Source: a phage. From it: a stretch of 64,000 nt of DNA. The notes under the pieces are model-generated. The model did not search any database and had not been told where the DNA came from. It saw only the letters and a program-made list of their open reading frames with translations. Made by a program: the position numbers and the translations under genes. How positions within the stretch are numbered: the stretch's first letter is position 1; the number at the start of each line of letters is the position of its first letter. Of the stretch, positions 12,996 through 32,369 are shown one piece after another. The DNA lies in assembly GCA_024875585.1 (NCBI GenBank), contig GCA_024875585.1_4107.1; one strand, 5' to 3'.

Positions 12996-13150
12996 GAAAT
13001 AAAAGGGATTGGACTATGGCAAAATGCGTAGGGGGGCTAAAGTGCGGGTAACTTAGCGGCTTCGATAAAGGGGTATTACGAATAAAATGTTATTGACTTT
13101 TTATATAAATCGTATAAAATATGATTGATAATAATTTTAAGGGAGTCCCT

Positions 13151-13348
13151 GTGCGTATTTTAACTCAAGCAGAACACCACGAAAGACTTATCAATAACAT
13201 GGCTATGATAATGTATAAGTCCCATGACCGTGGTATTGCCTATAAGCGTGAATTAGTACTGGAACTATTCATTGGAACTAACTTTCAGGAAAGGTATGTC
13301 AACGATTGGATTTGGTATTTAATTGAAGATATAACGAGTAAACTATGA
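13151..13348 (+). CDS. Family A small paralog (LGTNYQE-motif protein)
   Basis: motif FIGTNFQERYV; start set to GTG after SD AAGGGAG (track 13121) by alignment to paralogs. Confidence 0.55.
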   Translation: MRILTQAEHHERLINNMAMIMYKSHDRGIAYKRELVLELFIGTNFQERYVNDWIWYLIEDITSKL

Positions 13349-13539
13349 TCATTTTAAATAAAGAAGAATATCAAGAACTGTTACGTAAAAACTTTGTAAA
13401 GATTTATAATACAGACACACACGTAGAACGAATGGAGTTATACCTTTTGATTACATTGGGAACTAACTATCAGGAAAGATGGGTGATTCAATATATGGAT
13501 ACATTGAAAAATAAAATATTGTCCACGAGGAAACAATGA
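13345..13539 (+). CDS. Family A small paralog
   Basis: LGTNYQERWV; ATGA overlap. Confidence 0.65.
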   Translation: MIILNKEEYQELLRKNFVKIYNTDTHVERMELYLLITLGTNYQERWVIQYMDTLKNKILSTRKQ

Positions 13540-13745
13540 AAACTATAACACGAACCCAATCATACGGACTTATCTTGAAATACATGGACTTAATGGTGGA
13601 TATCAGCAAAGACCTGCCTAAAACTGCAATTGAAGTTGCAAGAGCAGAGATCCGCATGTTGGCTGTACTGAACACAAACCATCAGGAAGAGTATGTTGAC
13701 GATTGGATTCGATTTTTAATAGAAGATATTAAGAGTAAACTATGA
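13536..13745 (+). CDS. Family A small paralog
   Basis: LNTNHQEEYV; ATGA overlap. Confidence 0.65.
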   Translation: MKTITRTQSYGLILKYMDLMVDISKDLPKTAIEVARAEIRMLAVLNTNHQEEYVDDWIRFLIEDIKSKL

Positions 13746-13954
13746 TTATATTAACACCTGAAGAATATAAGAAACGTTTTAATTCTGTCCAGACTGAAAT
13801 ATTACTTATATACCTTTCAAATGCAGATCTTAACTTATCAAGGGTAATGGAGAAGGATTTACTTATGGGTGCATTTTTGGATACAGACTTTCAGGAGTAT
13901 TATGTAGGGGAATACTTTATTGCACTTCAGAACCACATTAAGAGTAAACTATGA
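13742..13954 (+). CDS. Family A small paralog
   Basis: FLDTDFQEYYV; ATGA overlap. Confidence 0.65.
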   Translation: MIILTPEEYKKRFNSVQTEILLIYLSNADLNLSRVMEKDLLMGAFLDTDFQEYYVGEYFIALQNHIKSKL

Positions 13955-14166
13955 TTATTCTAGAAAAATCATATCAATATACTGAACGCATCGCTGCCAG
14001 ACAACTTGAAATCCTCATAATATACGAAGAGACTTCTGATTTAAACTTAGCCGAGGTATTGGAAAATGAAATACTTTTGGGTGCATTCTTGGGAACAGAC
14101 TATCAGGAGTATTATGAGGAAAAGTATTTGTCATCTCTTGAGAAATACGTCAGGAGCAAACTATGA
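13951..14166 (+). CDS. Family A small paralog
   Basis: FLGTDYQEYYE; ATGA overlap. Confidence 0.65.
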   Translation: MIILEKSYQYTERIAARQLEILIIYEETSDLNLAEVLENEILLGAFLGTDYQEYYEEKYLSSLEKYVRSKL

Positions 14167-14390
14167 AACATTTAAGTAATATAGAGAAGAATAAAATTAT
14201 CATTGCTGTAATAAACAAATATTTTACACTTCCACAAAAAGAATGTTTATCTATAAGGGAACACAGGATAAACACCACCGAGATTCGCATGTTGGCTGTA
14301 CTGGGGACTAACTTCCAAGAAGGCTATGTTCATGAGCACATCGTTGCACTCACTAATTACATAATGGACAAATGTAATGAACATCATTAA
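14163..14390 (+). CDS. Family A small paralog
   Basis: LGTNFQEGYV; ATGA overlap. Confidence 0.65.
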   Translation: MKHLSNIEKNKIIIAVINKYFTLPQKECLSIREHRINTTEIRMLAVLGTNFQEGYVHEHIVALTNYIMDKCNEHH

Positions 14391-14601
14391 TAACTTTGAA
14401 TACGAGGCCCGTGCTAAGAGTGCCAGAAAAAAAGAGAACACCATTTACTTCACTATGATGTACTTACAATGGACTGAAATTGAAGAAAAGGTTGCTGAAG
14501 TATGGATGTTGGAATTCATGGGGACGCAGTATCAGAATAGGTTTGCGGGTGAGTATATCAATGTTCTTATGAAACAAATAGAAAGGAAGGAAAAGAACTA
14601 A
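14377..14601 (+). CDS. Family A small paralog
   Basis: MGTQYQNRFA. Confidence 0.6.
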   Translation: MNIINNFEYEARAKSARKKENTIYFTMMYLQWTEIEEKVAEVWMLEFMGTQYQNRFAGEYINVLMKQIERKEKN

Positions 14602-14690
14602 TGGAGGGATGCTGTACTTTATTGGAACTTTTATATATTCATGAACACATAGTTGCCCTCACAAATCTAATAAAGGATAAATGTAAATGA
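14601..14690 (+). pseudogene. internally deleted Family A remnant (29-codon mini-ORF)
   Basis: MEGCCTLLELLYIHEHIVALTNLIKDKCK matches N-terminal bit plus C-terminal helix of the 14163 member; keeps stop/start overlaps on both sides. Confidence 0.5.
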
Positions 14691-14944
14691 AACACTTGAC
14701 TGATGATGAACATGAAACTATAATTCGTAAACTAACCCCCATCACAAGGATAGTCTACGGTGATCCCAGCCTCACATGGAACCAAATGCGAGCTAAAGTT
14801 AATGAGCTATGGTTGCTGTACTTTATGGGGACTCAATATCAAGATAAGTTTTGCACAGAATATATCGAACAATTAACGAATGTTATACAGGATAAACTAA
14901 ATGAACGAATTGTGGAAAAATATGAAAACTTTATCAAGCATTGA
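14687..14944 (+). CDS. Family A small paralog
   Basis: MGTQYQDKFC. Confidence 0.6.
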   Translation: MKHLTDDEHETIIRKLTPITRIVYGDPSLTWNQMRAKVNELWLLYFMGTQYQDKFCTEYIEQLTNVIQDKLNERIVEKYENFIKH

Positions 14945-15173
14945 GTATCAGACTGCCCTCTTCTCTCTTCTAAACACCCTCCGCACGAACAATAAACTTT
15001 ATAATTCCCGTGAAGCTGATATTGTCAACGCTGATGTATATCTTAATAAATTTATAGGGACTAACTATCAAGAACTGTTTGTTTTACGATATATCTCTGC
15101 ACTAAGAAACGAAATATCAGATAAAACCCGCCAAGCCAGAAGAGAATGGAAGAGACAATGCAACAAAGACTAA
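14901..15173 (+). CDS. Family A small paralog
   Basis: FIGTNYQELFV; start uncertain (overlaps previous ORF). Confidence 0.55.
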   Translation: MNELWKNMKTLSSIEYQTALFSLLNTLRTNNKLYNSREADIVNADVYLNKFIGTNYQELFVLRYISALRNEISDKTRQARREWKRQCNKD

Positions 15174-15409
15174 ATCACAAAATGTATTGTAAACTATTAC
15201 AGAATCTAGGACAAAAACACTATGATACAGTATCTGAAATATTACCCTATGATATCATGCGTTTAATTCATAGTGAGGCAGAGATGCTTGTACTGATGAC
15301 CGGTACTGATAAAACAGCAATCACCAGATCGATAGAGCAATATATTGATGCACACTGTCAATGTATTAGAACTGAGATATGGAGGCGAGTAAATGAAAGT
15401 ACTGAATGA
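15146..15409 (+). CDS. Family A small paralog (divergent)
   Basis: degenerate motif MTGTDKTAIT; start uncertain. Confidence 0.5.
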   Translation: MEETMQQRLNHKMYCKLLQNLGQKHYDTVSEILPYDIMRLIHSEAEMLVLMTGTDKTAITRSIEQYIDAHCQCIRTEIWRRVNESTE

Positions 15410-15608
15410 GTATCAGTATCATTGGAGGTTACAAACTATAAGAGGGAAAGTTGTTAGTATTTCTTTAGATAAGTCTATTGCACAAGAGGACAAATGTGTT
15501 ATAATAGCTGAAATGAAGTTGGGTGTATTTGTAGGAACAAACTATCAAAACATCTACACTGACGTATTATTAAGTGCCTTACGCAACAAGGTGTTATCCA
15601 GAGAATGA
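15393..15608 (+). CDS. Family A small paralog
   Basis: FVGTNYQNIYT. Confidence 0.6.
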   Translation: MKVLNEYQYHWRLQTIRGKVVSISLDKSIAQEDKCVIIAEMKLGVFVGTNYQNIYTDVLLSALRNKVLSRE

Positions 15609-15823
15609 GAAAATTAATAGGTTACGAATATGTTAAGCTTCTGAAAACCTGTAGTATTAGCAGGGTAAAGATTCAATCTGATAAGAGTATTCCTGTTGAA
15701 CTAAAGTACGCAATGATGGCTGAACTTTATGTAGGTGCACTATTGGGGACAAACTATCAACAAATGTATGTAGACCTATGGGTTGACGCACTACTGAAAG
15801 AGGTCCAAAGTAAATGCAAATGA
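15605..15823 (+). CDS. Family A small paralog
   Basis: LLGTNYQQMYV; ATGA overlap. Confidence 0.65.
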   Translation: MRKLIGYEYVKLLKTCSISRVKIQSDKSIPVELKYAMMAELYVGALLGTNYQQMYVDLWVDALLKEVQSKCK

Positions 15824-16035
15824 TTCATTTATCTTACTATGAATATCAAAAACGTTTAAATGCATCAAGGGATATAAGGATTAAAATCTACAATAACAAA
15901 AGATTGAAATCTGAAGCCAAAAAAATCAAAATGATAGAAGCTGAATTATGCAACTTCCTTGGGACGAACTATCAGGATGATAAGGTAACAAACTATCTTA
16001 GAGAACTAATGATTAGTATCAAGAGTAAATGTTAG
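15814..16035 (+). CDS. Family A small paralog
   Basis: FLGTNYQDDKV. Confidence 0.6.
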   Translation: MQMIHLSYYEYQKRLNASRDIRIKIYNNKRLKSEAKKIKMIEAELCNFLGTNYQDDKVTNYLRELMISIKSKC

Positions 16036-16039
16036 GCAG

Positions 16040-16297
16040 ATGTACATGAAAATGATTAAATTATCTCAAGCAAAATATAAAGAACGCCTGGTGAAAATTG
16101 CACCTAGACTTAATGAAATCCATCACGGAGAAGTCATTAAACACGGAAATAAGATGATTATGAAACTTGAGTTAAAGGTGGGTGCATTCATAGGAACAAA
16201 CTATCAGGAGTATTATGTAGATGAATACATAATCGCACTTAAGAGATACATTGGAAGAAAACTATATCTACAAACTAAAGAATTGTATTGCAAATAA
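16040..16297 (+). CDS. Family A small paralog
   Basis: FIGTNYQEYYV. Confidence 0.6.
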   Translation: MYMKMIKLSQAKYKERLVKIAPRLNEIHHGEVIKHGNKMIMKLELKVGAFIGTNYQEYYVDEYIIALKRYIGRKLYLQTKELYCK

Positions 16298-16578
16298 ATG
16301 CAAGGATAATGAATATGAAAATGATCAATTTAAGTAAAGATGAATATACCGAGCGTATGACAAAAATTACGCACAAACGTAATACAATCTATCACAACCC
16401 AGAAATTCAACACAGTAAGAAAATGATTATGATGCGTGAGTTAAAGATGGGTGTATTCTTAGGAACAAACTATCAAGATACAGAAGTAAATCGCTTAATC
16501 GCGGAGTTACTACTGGAAATCAGAGGTAAGCTGTACTTTCATCAAATGACCCAACCACTGAGGTGTACTAAGAAATGA
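16288..16578 (+). CDS. Family A small paralog
   Basis: FLGTNYQDTEV; start among several nearby ATGs. Confidence 0.55.
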   Translation: MQINARIMNMKMINLSKDEYTERMTKITHKRNTIYHNPEIQHSKKMIMMRELKMGVFLGTNYQDTEVNRLIAELLLEIRGKLYFHQMTQPLRCTKK

Positions 16579-16790
16579 TCAACATCACATTGCAAGAAAG
16601 ATTCATCCGAATCAACTATGCAATTACCAAATTAGATGCTACTATAGGATTCCAAAGTCTACCGTTCCAAACAAGAATGATATTAGAGTGCGAAGCTAAA
16701 TTGGGTGTACTGTTAGGAACGCAACACCAACAACGATATGTGGAAATCTGGATTGATCTTTTAACCCAAAATGTACATGAGAAAATGTAA
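16575..16790 (+). CDS. Family A small paralog
   Basis: LLGTQHQQRYV; ATGA overlap. Confidence 0.65.
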   Translation: MINITLQERFIRINYAITKLDATIGFQSLPFQTRMILECEAKLGVLLGTQHQQRYVEIWIDLLTQNVHEKM

Positions 16791-17027
16791 ATGAAAAATG
16801 AAATGATATACTTAACGAATGAAGAGTTTCAAGAGAAGATGTTAAAAATCTATGATAATACTCTTGAGTACGTTCCAAATCAATCAATATATGAAGTGTC
16901 TGCGAATGTATTATTTCAGAAGCTACCATACGTTCTTGGAACGGATAAACAAGAATTTATGGTCAAAAATATGATTGAACATCTTATGATGAGTATTAAG
17001 GAAAAAGTGAATGCAAAAGAAAAATGA
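16791..17027 (+). CDS. Family A small paralog
   Basis: VLGTDKQEFMV. Confidence 0.6.
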   Translation: MKNEMIYLTNEEFQEKMLKIYDNTLEYVPNQSIYEVSANVLFQKLPYVLGTDKQEFMVKNMIEHLMMSIKEKVNAKEK

Positions 17028-17274
17028 AATGATATACTTAACACCTGCTGAGTTAACAGAAAGACTAGTTAAATCCAGAAGATATACAAATCAACTTCCT
17101 CACAACCCAAATCAAACCCCAGCGGAAAGGAGTGCAGAAGTTTTATTCCAATCACTACCATACCTTCTTGGAACTAATAGACAAGAGTATCATATCGAAC
17201 GTATAATTAAATATCTTAAAATTACTATTAAGGAAAAAGTAAATGCTCAAGAATTTAAAAATCCTAACAGTTAA
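17011..17274 (+). CDS. Family A small paralog
   Basis: LLGTNRQEYHI; near-duplicate N-terminus of the 16791 member. Confidence 0.6.
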   Translation: MQKKNEMIYLTPAELTERLVKSRRYTNQLPHNPNQTPAERSAEVLFQSLPYLLGTNRQEYHIERIIKYLKITIKEKVNAQEFKNPNS

Positions 17275-17485
17275 TGAATATCATAAGATTGTAATGAAAA
17301 CTAATAGTGCAATTTCTAAAAAATCAAACCCAAAGTACATACTGGAACACACATTTGAAGAACGTCAATTAGCTTTAGTTGAAGCAAAACTTCTTGCACT
17401 ATTAGGAACAAACTATCAGGAAGAATACATCAGAAAACTAATATACCTTTTAACTAAACACATCAGGAAAAGAAAAAAAGCATGA
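17243..17485 (+). CDS. Family A small paralog
   Basis: LLGTNYQEEYI. Confidence 0.6.
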   Translation: MLKNLKILTVNEYHKIVMKTNSAISKKSNPKYILEHTFEERQLALVEAKLLALLGTNYQEEYIRKLIYLLTKHIRKRKKA

Positions 17486-17712
17486 AGCACTTGACAGATG
17501 ATGAACATGGGCTTATAGTAATGGATGTAATCAACATCGAATACAAAAAGTTGATACGCTATCGTTGTTATGAAGATAAGCAACTAGTTCTAGCAGAACA
17601 GAAGTTGTTTCGACTCTTAAACACAAACTTCCAAGCACAATACGAAGAATCGTATATGTACCTTTTGGCGAGGAAAGCAAAAAGAGATTATGAAAATTTT
17701 AAGCAAAGGTGA
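17482..17712 (+). CDS. Family A small paralog
   Basis: LLNTNFQAQYE; N-terminus MKHLTDDEH shared with 14687 member. Confidence 0.6.
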   Translation: MKHLTDDEHGLIVMDVINIEYKKLIRYRCYEDKQLVLAEQKLFRLLNTNFQAQYEESYMYLLARKAKRDYENFKQR

Positions 17713-17911
17713 TTCAGTAATATTACTTATAGAGAGTTCAAATAAATTCTTAAACATAACACTGTCTGATATAGATGAAGATGATAAAGAAGTACTGAGA
17801 GCAGATTTAAGAGTACTGTTACATCTCGGAACAAACCTACAAGAAGAATATGTAGAGTACTACATTGATGAACTTAAAGAATCAGTACTGAGAAGATGCA
17901 AATGCGAATGA
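17690..17911 (+). CDS. Family A small paralog
   Basis: HLGTNLQEEYV. Confidence 0.6.
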   Translation: MKILSKGDSVILLIESSNKFLNITLSDIDEDDKEVLRADLRVLLHLGTNLQEEYVEYYIDELKESVLRRCKCE

Positions 17912-18123
17912 TTACCGACGAAGAATACCTAACAATTATAAATGGATTGTTTTTGAAGTTGTTTGTTATTAACACATCAGATATACCAGATATGGATAAA
18001 ATTATTAAGAGAAATGAAATCTATGTTCTAGCTACCCTGGGAACTAACTATCAAGAATGCAATATTAATGATTATATTAATACACTTAAAGGAGCGATTG
18101 AACTAAAATGCCAAAACCACTAG
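17896..18123 (+). CDS. Family A small paralog
   Basis: TLGTNYQECNI. Confidence 0.6.
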   Translation: MQMRMITDEEYLTIINGLFLKLFVINTSDIPDMDKIIKRNEIYVLATLGTNYQECNINDYINTLKGAIELKCQNH

Positions 18124-18323
18124 GAACAGCAGAATACATTGAACTCATGGGATTACACTTCTCATCCTTTCAGAAACTTATGCGAGAATCAAAGAATGAT
18201 TTAGAATATACCATCAGAGGTTCAGATTTAAGAATGCTTCTCACCCTAGACACAGATTCCCAAGAGAGATTTGTCAATGAGCATATTAGAGCACTTTTAA
18301 TGGAAATTAAAAGTAAACTATGA
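18108..18323 (+). CDS. Family A small paralog
   Basis: TLDTDSQERFV. Confidence 0.6.
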   Translation: MPKPLGTAEYIELMGLHFSSFQKLMRESKNDLEYTIRGSDLRMLLTLDTDSQERFVNEHIRALLMEIKSKL

Positions 18324-18535
18324 AGGTAATATCAAACCAAGAGTACTTGGCACTATTCAGGAAGAATAATCACAAATATATGGCACTTGATTCAAGAACT
18401 GATATAGGGGAACTTGAAAAAAATCTTTTGCGTTCAGAGATGATAGTACTGACACTCTTAGGAACACAACATCAAGAGAGAACTGTTGATTCATATATTG
18501 AGATTCTTAAGAAGCTTATACAGGAAAAACTATGA
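18320..18535 (+). CDS. Family A small paralog
   Basis: LLGTQHQERTV; ATGA overlap. Confidence 0.65.
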   Translation: MKVISNQEYLALFRKNNHKYMALDSRTDIGELEKNLLRSEMIVLTLLGTQHQERTVDSYIEILKKLIQEKL

Positions 18536-18762
18536 GAATCATAACACAAACAGACATATTTAAGTTAGCAAGGGAACATACATCTGAAATTGATGCTATA
18601 GTATCAAAAAGTTACAATGACCCTTATACACAAGATGTGCACTACAATGAATTATGGGTGTATATACTTTTAGGTACAAATTATCAAGAGCAAGCAGTAC
18701 AGAAGTATTTGGCAGCTTTAAGTACTGCTACTGCTAATAGTATAGGTATTAAAAAATGCTAG
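18532..18762 (+). CDS. Family A small paralog
   Basis: LLGTNYQEQAV; ATGA overlap. Confidence 0.65.
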   Translation: MRIITQTDIFKLAREHTSEIDAIVSKSYNDPYTQDVHYNELWVYILLGTNYQEQAVQKYLAALSTATANSIGIKKC

Positions 18763-18992
18763 TACTGACAGAACTAGAAATGTATCATAGATTTAATAAG
18801 TACTATCATTTACTTAAGCCTATACAGAGGATTAAATGTCCATTTGAAGAGAAACAGGTATTAATTTATGAGCATAAGTTATTTGTATCATTAGGTACGA
18901 ATGAACAAGAGTATTATTTGAAGTTGTACTTAATTACTTTAATTGAATTGATTAATCACAAAACACAGAAAGCTAAGAAATCTAAAAAATGA
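18756..18992 (+). CDS. Family A small paralog
   Basis: SLGTNEQEYYL. Confidence 0.6.
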   Translation: MLVLTELEMYHRFNKYYHLLKPIQRIKCPFEEKQVLIYEHKLFVSLGTNEQEYYLKLYLITLIELINHKTQKAKKSKK

Positions 18993-19339: not shown

Positions 19340-19555
19340 ATGAAAAGATTATCATACAAAGATTACAGTAAACTTATCAGTACTTTACAACCAGAAATTA
19401 GAAGAATTAATTATCTTCCTATACCCAACGAAGAACGTGTAGTACTGAAAAATGAGTTAATATTAAAACGCACAGTAGGTACTAACTATCAAGATAATAG
19501 TGTTTGCGATTTAATTAGAGGGTTAATGATCACAATAAAGGCCAAGTGCTATTGA
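19340..19555 (+). CDS. Family A small paralog
   Basis: TVGTNYQDNSV. Confidence 0.6.
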   Translation: MKRLSYKDYSKLISTLQPEIRRINYLPIPNEERVVLKNELILKRTVGTNYQDNSVCDLIRGLMITIKAKCY

Positions 19556-19561
19556 CAGTAC

Positions 19562-19590
19562 TTGACGGAGCTTTTCATTACTGATATAGT
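19562..19590 (+). promoter_or_regulatory. sigma70-type promoter (TTGACG-N17-TATAGT)
   Basis: TTGACG 19562-19567, TATAGT 19585-19590, TG at -15/-14. Confidence 0.5.
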
Positions 19591-19619
19591 ACACTAACGT
19601 TAATCATAGGGTAGAAATT

Positions 19620-19865
19620 ATGTTAAAATTTTTAAATTTCCTTATCGTCTTGTGTATTGTTCTTGGGATTGCACCGTTTGTACTGGTGTATATGGATTCA
19701 GATGAAATGCAAAAGATGAATTGCACAAAGACGGGACAGAGTAGAGAAGAGACGATTCTTATGCCTGTTACTGTTATTGTTAATAATATGCCCATTACAA
19801 ACATGGTCCCTACCCTAACGACAACGTACCAGTACTCTTGTACAGACGGGGAGAGGTGGAGATGA
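19620..19865 (+). CDS. small membrane protein (81 aa)
   Basis: N-terminal hydrophobic helix FLNFLIVLCIVLGIAPFVLVY. Confidence 0.5.
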   Translation: MLKFLNFLIVLCIVLGIAPFVLVYMDSDEMQKMNCTKTGQSREETILMPVTVIVNNMPITNMVPTLTTTYQYSCTDGERWR

Positions 19866-20182
19866 AATTTAATATAGCAAAAACATCGAATGTATGTATA
19901 TTTGGTTATGCAGAAGAGTTAGGTGATATTGACATTCTTTTGTACAAAAAGGATGGTGTTATGCATTTCAAGTACCAGGATGAAGAGGCAGACAATTATC
20001 TTTTGCCTAATTTAGTACAAATGCAGGAAGAGGAATTATTCCAGTACAGCTTAGTATATGACATTGATATTTGCACGATGCCAGTACTAATTAATATTCA
20101 AAAAGTGATGCTCGATGTGTTTGATAGGCTAATACAAGGCACACAAGGAAGAACCATATATGTCAATGTACAAGACAATTAA
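19862..20182 (+). CDS. Family B paralog
   Basis: EELFQYSLVYD; start moved to ATG after SD GAGGTGGAG (track 19838). Confidence 0.6.
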   Translation: MKFNIAKTSNVCIFGYAEELGDIDILLYKKDGVMHFKYQDEEADNYLLPNLVQMQEEELFQYSLVYDIDICTMPVLINIQKVMLDVFDRLIQGTQGRTIYVNVQDN

Positions 20183-20375
20183 TCAAGAATGGAAGAATCA
20201 AAAGTACAGAGAATTCAATAGGAATTTTACAAAAGACGAATTGAATATAAAAACAACAGAATTTGATATGTTTATTTTTCTCGGAACACGTTCTCAGGAG
20301 CAATTTGTTCATTATTATATAAATTCGTTGCGAGCGGAGATAGTATGCAAAACAAAGGGTATTATAAAAAGGTAA
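20160..20375 (+). CDS. Family A small paralog
   Basis: FLGTRSQEQFV. Confidence 0.55.
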   Translation: MSMYKTINQEWKNQKYREFNRNFTKDELNIKTTEFDMFIFLGTRSQEQFVHYYINSLRAEIVCKTKGIIKR

Positions 20376-20611
20376 ACCAACATTTGTACGCTACAAAGTA
20401 CAGGGATTTTTGTTTAAAGGGTGGTGATGAAGATTTTTCTTTGCGATTATCAGAATTTAATCTGTTATTTTATCTTGGTACATCGGAACAAGAAGAAATG
20501 GCACAGAAATTTCTCAATCACCTTGTACAAAAAATTAATATGCAAATTTTGATGCTTAAGTTACAGGATGAGATAAATGAATATGAACCCAACAATAGTA
20601 CAGGATCTTAA
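20345..20611 (+). CDS. Family A small paralog
   Basis: YLGTSEQEEMA. Confidence 0.55.
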   Translation: MQNKGYYKKVNQHLYATKYRDFCLKGGDEDFSLRLSEFNLLFYLGTSEQEEMAQKFLNHLVQKINMQILMLKLQDEINEYEPNNSTGS

Positions 20612-31471: not shown

Positions 31472-32004
31472 TGAAAGTTAACATTAATGACTTTGATGCA
31501 TTACAAGATTTATCAAAAAAGATTCGCACCATCGTACCAGTACTTAAAAAATGCAGTACTGGTTTAATCGATCCTAGTTCTGTTGTCAATGAGAAGTACA
31601 ATTTTCATCGTGTATTACAGGGGACAGGTGCATTTCAGAAGTGTGAGGTACGTGAGAAACATGTAATTGATACATCGTTGTTTTCTATTGGTGCACCTGT
31701 GTCAAACAATACTATTTTCCTGGATGCCGCTGGAAATATTCAACAATTAACATTTAAGAAAAGGAAAAAGAATAATAACATTGGTGTGTACGAGATGAAG
31801 TGGGGACAGCCAGAGTTGATGCGTGACATTCACATTCCTAAGTACAATTTCAATGCATTTGAAGAACAGTGTTTTCAACTTTCTTGTACTGACCCTGACT
31901 ATGCTATCATTCAATTCTATATGGAATTGCAGATTGCATTTAATAGTAATTTGTATATTAACTTATTGGCAATGAACATAGATGAAGTATTCAAAAACAT
32001 TTAA
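31471..32004 (+). CDS. Family B paralog (divergent)
   Basis: EEQCFQLSCTD; start at ATG overlapping previous stop. Confidence 0.5.
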   Translation: MKVNINDFDALQDLSKKIRTIVPVLKKCSTGLIDPSSVVNEKYNFHRVLQGTGAFQKCEVREKHVIDTSLFSIGAPVSNNTIFLDAAGNIQQLTFKKRKKNNNIGVYEMKWGQPELMRDIHIPKYNFNAFEEQCFQLSCTDPDYAIIQFYMELQIAFNSNLYINLLAMNIDEVFKNI

Positions 32005-32200
32005 TCGAATTGAATACATGAGAACTGTGAGAGCGGTGTGGAATATATGGTACACTACTAAACCAAAAATGGATTACCATGATTTTAAGCTCTTGTTCTT
32101 TGTTGGCTCTAACAAACAGGATGTTGCAATGAAGGGTTATATTCAGCACTTACAGGAACTAATCCAGAAGAGAATATATGAAAATAATAGACCAAAATGA
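31982..32200 (+). CDS. Family A small paralog (displaced into Family B array)
   Basis: FVGSNKQDVAM. Confidence 0.5.
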   Translation: MKYSKTFNRIEYMRTVRAVWNIWYTTKPKMDYHDFKLLFFVGSNKQDVAMKGYIQHLQELIQKRIYENNRPK

Positions 32201-32369
32201 CATTGCTAAACTATTCAATATATATTCTACTAGAATGATGCAAACAGATTCATATAGTACTAAATTCAAAGAGTTGAAAGTACTGATGTACTTGGGAACA
32301 CAATATCAGGAACAAGTTATTTTAGAATATATTAATTCATTAAAGAAGGATATCCGTGATGTACGATGA
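32178..32369 (+). CDS. Family A small paralog (displaced into Family B array)
   Basis: YLGTQYQEQVI. Confidence 0.55.
   Translation: MKIIDQNDIAKLFNIYSTRMMQTDSYSTKFKELKVLMYLGTQYQEQVILEYINSLKKDIRDVR

Follow-up and report, generated by a model that had tools for sequence, protein, structure and literature searches.

The window analysed here, a stretch of 64,000 nucleotides of phage DNA, contains between two members of a tandem gene family a 29-codon open reading frame (14601-14690, on the + strand) that is best explained as the decayed remnant of a small paralogue, here called X, whittled down by small deletions. We give a probability of about 0.7 to this explanation, which includes the propositions that the peptide is most likely functionless and that the DNA still carries the start signals of the neighbouring genes. 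Intact X, a 52-residue hairpin by its predicted structure, sits between genes B and C in part of Asteriusvirus. In the lineage of the window and phage UE-S1, 69 nt have been deleted, with the loss of most of helix 2 and of the family motif, leaving helix 3 alone in frame. The survivors are the 5' ATG, which overlaps the stop codon of B, and the last 57 or so nucleotides, which double as the Shine-Dalgarno and ATGA region of C. Ribosomes probably still traverse the mini ORF as a by-product of these overlaps. The locus offers a clean, datable case of the loss of a member from a translationally overlapping array of tiny phage genes.

The mini ORF and its array

The window was placed among the Asteriusvirus jumbo coliphages (the 121Q/PBECO4/G17 group, which also includes SP27) by megablast of 13100-16300, and over this span phage UE-S1 is the closest record, at 94% identity. 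The ORF at 14601-14690 is surrounded by a + strand array of about 30 small paralogues that extends over some 7.5 kb, and whose stop/start-overlapping genes were treated as an operon. An HMM made from the window members finds 31 matches in the window, 26 of them contiguous ORFs from 13121 to 18992 (the remnant itself among them) and five further off, at 19340-20611 and 31982-32369. Overlaps occur at 24 of the 26 junctions in the array, and 11 of these are of the 4-nt ATGA type. Literature searches that covered papers on 121Q, PBECO4, CBB and Sharanji and a comparative genomics survey of jumbo phages turned up no account of the array.

The array members, of about 64-96 aa, belong to PHROG 4148, a family of unknown function that full members match at 1e-15 to 1e-23 over positions 1-73 of 74; neither Pfam nor NCBIfam returned a significant match for it. 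An AlphaFold2 (AF2) model of the member at 14163-14390, called A' below, was built from an alignment of 27 window paralogues and predicts a three-helix bundle (pLDDT 93; helices 6-21, 31-45 and 52-73). The only strongly conserved motif of the family, GT(N/Q/D)xQ (GTxxQ for short), forms the turn between helix 2 and helix 3, and its T and Q are invariant in the 27 window members. Foldseek returned no solved structure below E = 3 from the PDB, and from BFVD only uncharacterised Asteriusvirus paralogues. At the nucleic acid level, Rfam had no family in the whole window, the predicted RNA fold of 14570-14720 was not more stable than shuffles (z = -0.30), and promoter and terminator counts in the array were not above shuffles. 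The best sigma-70-like matches in the array (11/12 each) lie at 14696-14724 and 17491-17519, as TTGACT-17-TATAAT and TTGACA-17-TATAGT, and both sit in the 5' ends of paralogues that start with MKHLTDDEH; since the overall promoter-like count does not exceed that of shuffles, these sites may be due to chance. A further promoter-like sequence, TTGACT-16-TAAAAT (13093-13120), directly precedes the first array member. The true start of that gene is probably the GTG at 13151 (vRILTQAEHHERL), which has AAGGGAG upstream, rather than the ATG at 13121; relatives have MRILTKEQHHERL there.

The mini ORF, whose product is MEGCCTLLELLYIHEHIVALTNLIKDKCK, lies between B (14377-14601; 74 aa) and C (14687-14944; 85 aa), both of them family members. 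As the first-pass annotation had read, it overlaps both neighbours: its ATG (14601-14603) begins on the last base of the TAA that ends B (TAATG), and its TGA (14688-14690) overlaps the ATG of C (14687-14689) in an ATGA that couples C to the remnant. Its own translation start region (14584-14603) consists of AGGAAGGA (14584-14591), a 9-nt spacer and the ATG within TAATG, and is unchanged in the aligned phages with intact X. The start region of C (14674-14690) falls within the 3' end of the remnant and consists of AGGA (14674-14677), again a 9-nt spacer, and the ATGA; the junction AATCTAATAA(A/G)GGA(T/C)AAATGTAAATGAAACA is kept in G17 X, in the 3' end of SP27 gene A and in the window. In position the mini ORF resembles the other array members of PHROG 4148, being on the + strand with stop/start overlaps on both sides. 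In other respects it departs from the family: it aligns only to the third helix of the fold, lacks an in-frame GT(N/Q/D)xQ motif, and its 29-aa product has no match in PHROGs (E <= 0.01) or Pfam. The family HMM made from the window members matches it in helix 3 only (E = 3.9e-4).

Gene X and its deletions

Gene X is a 159-nt ORF encoding 52 aa (MVFINISDQLDTKLEVEQSEGWMLYFLGTSHQNFYIHEHIVALTNLIRDKCK) that lies between B and C and overlaps them, like the mini ORF, through TAATG and ATGA. Eleven phage records contain it, among them G17, JP4, slurp01, Sharanji, CRJP21, PBECO4 and four Salmonella SD phages (records include G17_00606 / QBO62095.1, JP4_CDS0397 / XHY54033.1 and PSLUR01_00222), and it also occurs on metagenome and Logan contigs. 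X covers positions 27-72 of the 74 in PHROG 4148 and has a second match to phrog_28039 (53 positions). Its AF2 model is a two-helix hairpin (H6-25 and H32-51, pLDDT 87), laid out as helix 2, GTxxQ turn and helix 3. By this restricted profile match and the hairpin model, X itself already lacks helix 1. A full-length X was found neither in 50,697 phage records, nor in a search of 5.8 billion proteins, nor in the fetched loci, where a full-length parent was sought among all ORFs. Of the two halves of X, the N-terminal one most resembles B (50% over 22 aa) and the C-terminal one A/A'.

Intact X is conserved. A diverged allele of it, P0003, which is 77% identical in amino-acid sequence, is found in the A'-B-X-C context on six Logan contigs. 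Between this allele, as carried by contig L010, and the X of G17 there are 22 substitutions and no indels; the dN/dS is 0.32, and the adjacent A' and C give 0.5-0.6. By these sequence comparisons, X looks like a maintained, conserved gene. One X variant on a 517-nt ENA contig (P0002) has lost its stop codon (...KCKWNTW..., 73 aa), and may be either a genuine allele or the result of misassembly.

The mini ORF is orthologous to X and differs from it by deletion. It occupies the same position, between B (MNIINNFEYEARAK...) and C (MKHLTDDE...) with the TAATG and ATGA overlaps, and it is homologous at the nucleotide level: in blastn, 57 nt of the window ORF match G17 X at 94.7% (E = 1e-20) and another 24 nt match it at 95.8% (E = 1e-5), and an alignment of the remnant to G17 X matches at 82 of 99 aligned positions (score 121, reached by 0/500 shuffles). 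The C-terminal 17 residues differ from those of G17-type X by a single K/R exchange. Unlike X, the remnant has 29 rather than 52 codons, with the end of helix 2 and the motif out of frame; 69 nt are gone, which leaves the net change in frame and the interior frame-shifted.

From an alignment of the window, UE-S1, JP4, G17, L010, L011 and L016, the loss of 69 nt can be read either as deletions of 54, 4 and 11 nt, which needs no substitution, or as deletions of 58 and 11 nt with one substitution. The larger deletion, of 54 nt or alternatively 58 nt, has its junction at 14603/14604 and in the 54-nt reading removes X codons 2-19. The 4-nt deletion would concern a tandem GATG, which is present twice in G17, three times in L010 and once in the window (14608-14611), and this repeat is a likely slippage site for a frame-shifting deletion of 4 nt. 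As a GATG tetranucleotide repeat inside the coding sequence of X, it can be located at L003 1790-1800, L010 3090-3100 and window 14604-14611. The 11-nt deletion (junction 14629/14630) removes the SHQN part of the GTxxQ motif and restores the frame. In either reading two frame-shifting lesions cancel, so that 14604-14629 is out of the ancestral frame and 14634-14690 is in it. All told, the remnant lacks 23 codons of X, namely codons 2-19 and two short stretches flanking the motif, and a further nine codons are scrambled.

The DNA between the two junctions (14604-14629) is what is left of the end of helix 2 and of the GT motif. Ancestrally it encoded EGWMLYFLGT; the ancestral frame would now read GGMLYFIGT and then a stop, and the frame of the mini ORF reads CCTLLEL over the motif DNA. 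The GGAACT of the motif persists but encodes E-L, and the codons for xxQ have been deleted. Similarity of the 5' part to the motif region, which had been pointed out before, does exist in the DNA, since 14607-14629 matches the motif region of C at 20 of 23 positions (a score reached by 1/500 shuffles), but it lies in the wrong frame. Downstream, 14634-14686 (YIHEHIVALTNLIKDKC) encodes helix 3, as assigned from the AF2 models, in the ancestral frame, and its orthologues are the 3' ends of X and of the fused gene A of SP27-type phages (see below). Of the three helices of the family fold, two are present in intact X and one in the remnant.

Gene conversion from another paralogue was considered as the source of the junctions. 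Neither junction 20-mer recurs in the window, even when three mismatches are allowed, which rules out such copying and argues for plain deletions.

Carriers of the allele and competing explanations

The 29-codon allele is carried by the window, by UE-S1 and by seven Logan assemblies from different runs, and it is open in 9/9 carriers. Its presence in the other eight argues that it is not a sequencing artefact. The UE-S1 remnant differs from that of the window by one substitution, six of the seven Logan remnants are identical to it, and the seventh (L027) has two substitutions. These three nucleotide differences amount to two variable sites, one of them common to UE-S1 and L027; both change the encoded residue and fall within the scrambled stretch 14604-14629, and the helix-3 codons are unchanged among carriers. 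The Logan carriers were found by exact match to the C protein of the window, a biased sampling that makes the invariance of the 3' part uninformative. One of them (L025) is 100% identical to the window over 2658 nt. Intermediates with a single deletion, from which the order of events could be read, were not found in phage records, in the metagenome scan or among the Logan carriers.

Gene callers have missed this leftover: the UE-S1 record does not annotate it, and it was called in none of the Logan contigs. Annotators should label it a remnant of X rather than a new gene. An apparent 52-nt "extra" in UE-S1 probably arose from the joining of a paralogous piece to the match; on alignment, UE-S1 has the same allele as the window. 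The UE-S1 record also annotates fragments (1387-1566 and 1631-1777 of L001) in a region (1339-1777) that holds intact A' (1339-1566) and B (1553-1777). Scans of IMG/VR with gene B and with the helix-3 DNA found no Asteriusvirus loci, and two pattern matches there (L008 and L009) are presumed chance. A pattern scan of metagenomes found two true X loci (L016 and L017), one chance match (L018) and the 13-kb contig L019 (JTFO01002478.1). In the latter, positions 1-150 alone match B-X, with a break in the X motif, and the rest is without an Asteriusvirus match; it is probably an assembly chimera.

The remnant lacks the parts that are conserved in X, a gene under constraint, and qualifies in this sense as a pseudogene. 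It probably derives from a gene for a functional two-helix protein; we infer that this function has been lost, and the retained 3' end is most simply ascribed to its second role as the start region of C. Several observations nonetheless count against decay: the Shine-Dalgarno sequence is plausible, both overlaps are kept and all nine carriers are open; two compensating frame-breaking deletions would fit selection for an open frame; and the helix-3 codons are constant among carriers, though these were sampled with bias through C. One might suppose that the ORF survives as a relay, in which an open frame was selected for translational coupling from B to C and the second frameshift became established by bringing termination back to the ATGA. 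With either frame-shifting deletion alone, translation would stop before C, at a TAG about 36 nt ahead of its ATG for the 4-nt deletion and, by our own reading of the sequence, some 45 nt upstream in the case of the 11-nt deletion, which makes a relay conceivable in an array so rich in overlapping junctions and for a net loss of 69 nt that is in frame. If this were true, a dying gene in such an array would shrink only by frame-preserving steps, a premature stop would uncouple the genes downstream, and two compensating frame-shifting deletions would be the signature of a coupling constraint. This explanation is unlikely, however. Among random pairs of frame-shifting deletions simulated in this stretch, 47% keep the ORF open from ATG to TGA, so that compensation is unsurprising; C is preceded, 9 nt before its ATG, by an AGGA of its own; and disruptions are tolerated elsewhere, as in the in-frame TAA of 121Q gp321 and the frameshift in B of contig L026. 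On these grounds the open frame does not count as evidence of selection. The missing single-deletion intermediates likewise give a relay no help.

That the 29-aa product acts by itself as a micropeptide, with helix 3 pairing for example with the paralogous three-helix proteins or with their targets, is less credible still. A Shine-Dalgarno sequence and a start codon are present, the allele is widespread, and helix 3 is in frame with one conservative K/R change and two synonymous changes relative to G17 X. Yet two of three helices and GTxxQ are gone, the first 11 residues are frame-scrambled and hold the only variable positions, the conservation of the 3' part is equally explained by the start signals of C and the biased sampling, and many relatives do entirely without X. 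In a weaker variant of the relay reading, the surviving helix-3 peptide might still interact with its paralogues. The first-pass annotation had proposed a different origin, in which a full-length duplicate of the gene at 14163-14390 lost its middle by unequal recombination, and this we consider very improbable. The similarity on which it was based is real: 14634-14690 matches the 3' end of that gene at 48 of 58 positions (local score 60, reached by 0/500 shuffles), and the other array members of the window score at most 28 against the 3' part of the remnant. "Near-identical" overstates a match of 83%, in which only a 23-nt core reaches 21/23 identity. More tellingly, the remnant is closer to G17 X (82/99, score 121) and to SP27 A (49/57) than to 14163-14390, its 5' part matches the motif region of X and not that of A', and the N-terminal half of X is itself most like B, not A'. 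The parent is thus the 52-aa orthologue, with the same neighbours in G17, slurp01, JP4 and PBECO4, and no full-length copy was found at this slot in related genomes. Measured against X, what is missing is codons 2-19 and the stretches flanking the motif rather than the middle of a full-length gene, and the junctions, which have no paralogous donor in the window, are those of small plain deletions (54 or 58 nt, possibly a GATG unit, and 11 nt) and do not look like a footprint of unequal recombination.

Fusion, turnover and mosaicism in the array

The likeness of the remnant to A' is accounted for by shared helix-3 ancestry and a probable short patch of gene conversion. The helix-3 segment of A' (14325-14381) singled out in the first-pass annotation is paralogous to that of X and shares with it a patch (CATGAGCAC, encoding HEH). 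This HEH stands just before the shared core in A' of the window, JP4 and UE-S1, as it does in X, and the A/A' genes of SP27, Turkey3, G17 and L010-L015 have VAH or IAH at that position. To judge from this pattern, a short gene-conversion patch probably passed from X into A'.

Unequal recombination, although not the source of the remnant, would explain a second and independent loss of X. SP27 and Turkey3 lack B and X; their gene A (72 aa) ends in ...HIVALTDLIRDKCK* and is ATGA-coupled to the next gene. The nucleotide sequence at the 3' end of SP27 A resembles A' as far as CACATAGTTGC and X beyond that point, and the remnant matches this end at 49 of 57 positions. The fused state, with B and the 5' part of X gone, is seen in about 19 phage records. 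The first 186 nt of SP27 A are 98.9% identical to A' of L014/L015, 83% to that of G17 and 73% to that of UE-S1, and the fused gene therefore nests inside the diversity of A'. The SP27-type fusion is most likely the derived state, with B and the 5' part of X deleted by recombination between the two helix-3 segments, a polarity that mosaicism could confound. The fused gene resembles the remnant in its X-derived 3' end and in its junction to the next gene. The two differ in that recombination between A' and X eliminated B and left a full-length, functional-looking gene, whereas small deletions left the remnant with B retained. X is evidently dispensable, since SP27-type genomes do without B and the 5' part of X.

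A degraded family member inside a coupled array whose turnover continues, as first suspected, is indeed what the comparisons reveal. About 36 Asteriusvirus records show at least five arrangements of the slot between A and C: empty (SP27); filled by another member, T (Turkey3); B with 52-codon X; B with the 29-codon remnant; and B without A or X (121Q and A4). The Turkey3 member (L006 1854-2072), a 72-aa protein MKDINTQEYLKRLEQGK...HITALKCHVRDLGK, likewise has the helix HI.AL...RD..K before its ATGA, so that whichever gene precedes C always carries such a 3' end.

The array is strongly mosaic, with pairwise identity in 40-nt windows swinging from about 50% to 100%. Between 13950 and about 14585 the window is identical at every position (100%) to L016 (OEQX01000020.1), a contig in which X is intact and C is G17-like; starting with the remnant, and within the compared span of 13950-15175, the window follows UE-S1. 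The crossover is hidden inside the invariant gene B, and a marker G at about 14586 sides with UE-S1. B is 97-100% identical in nucleotide sequence across the window, UE-S1, JP4, G17 and L010-L016 (dS 0.03-0.06), and the genes flanking it are only 72-88% identical (dS 0.2-0.6). Loci compared for B include window 14377-14601, L002 1553-1777, L003 1501-1725 and L010 2801-3025. The near-invariance of B could reflect a recent allele sweep, a recombination hinge or constraint at the nucleotide level. Diverged B alleles occur in 121Q (about 75%) and A4 (87%).

Decay and turnover of tandem multigene families occur in other large DNA viruses, from the "gene accordions" of poxviruses to the hyperplastic regions of T4-like phages. 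By analogy, the array described here appears to share with such families presence/absence polymorphism, recombination between repeats and leftover fragments; it differs in that its genes are tiny and translationally overlapping and that no copy-number amplification was observed. The decay of X is thus a new instance of a familiar event, ordinary gene decay in a fast-recombining array, and its practical impact is modest because the family is without known function. The interest lies partly in the two independent ways in which X has been lost, by small deletions in the window and by recombinational fusion in SP27-type phages. More useful leads are found nearby, in the 52-aa two-helix form of a three-helix family, in the near-invariant B and in the extreme mosaicism of the array.

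Two further loci came to light in these comparisons. Gene B of L026 (880-1130) is a variant with a 1-nt frameshift in a run of A, and it too may be either a genuine allele or a fault of the assembly. 121Q gp321 (L005 1174-1383) carries an in-frame TAA (MKTITRTQSFGLIL*YMDLMVDISKD...), and the record annotates only its 3' 49 codons; it is either another decaying member of the family or a sequencing error.
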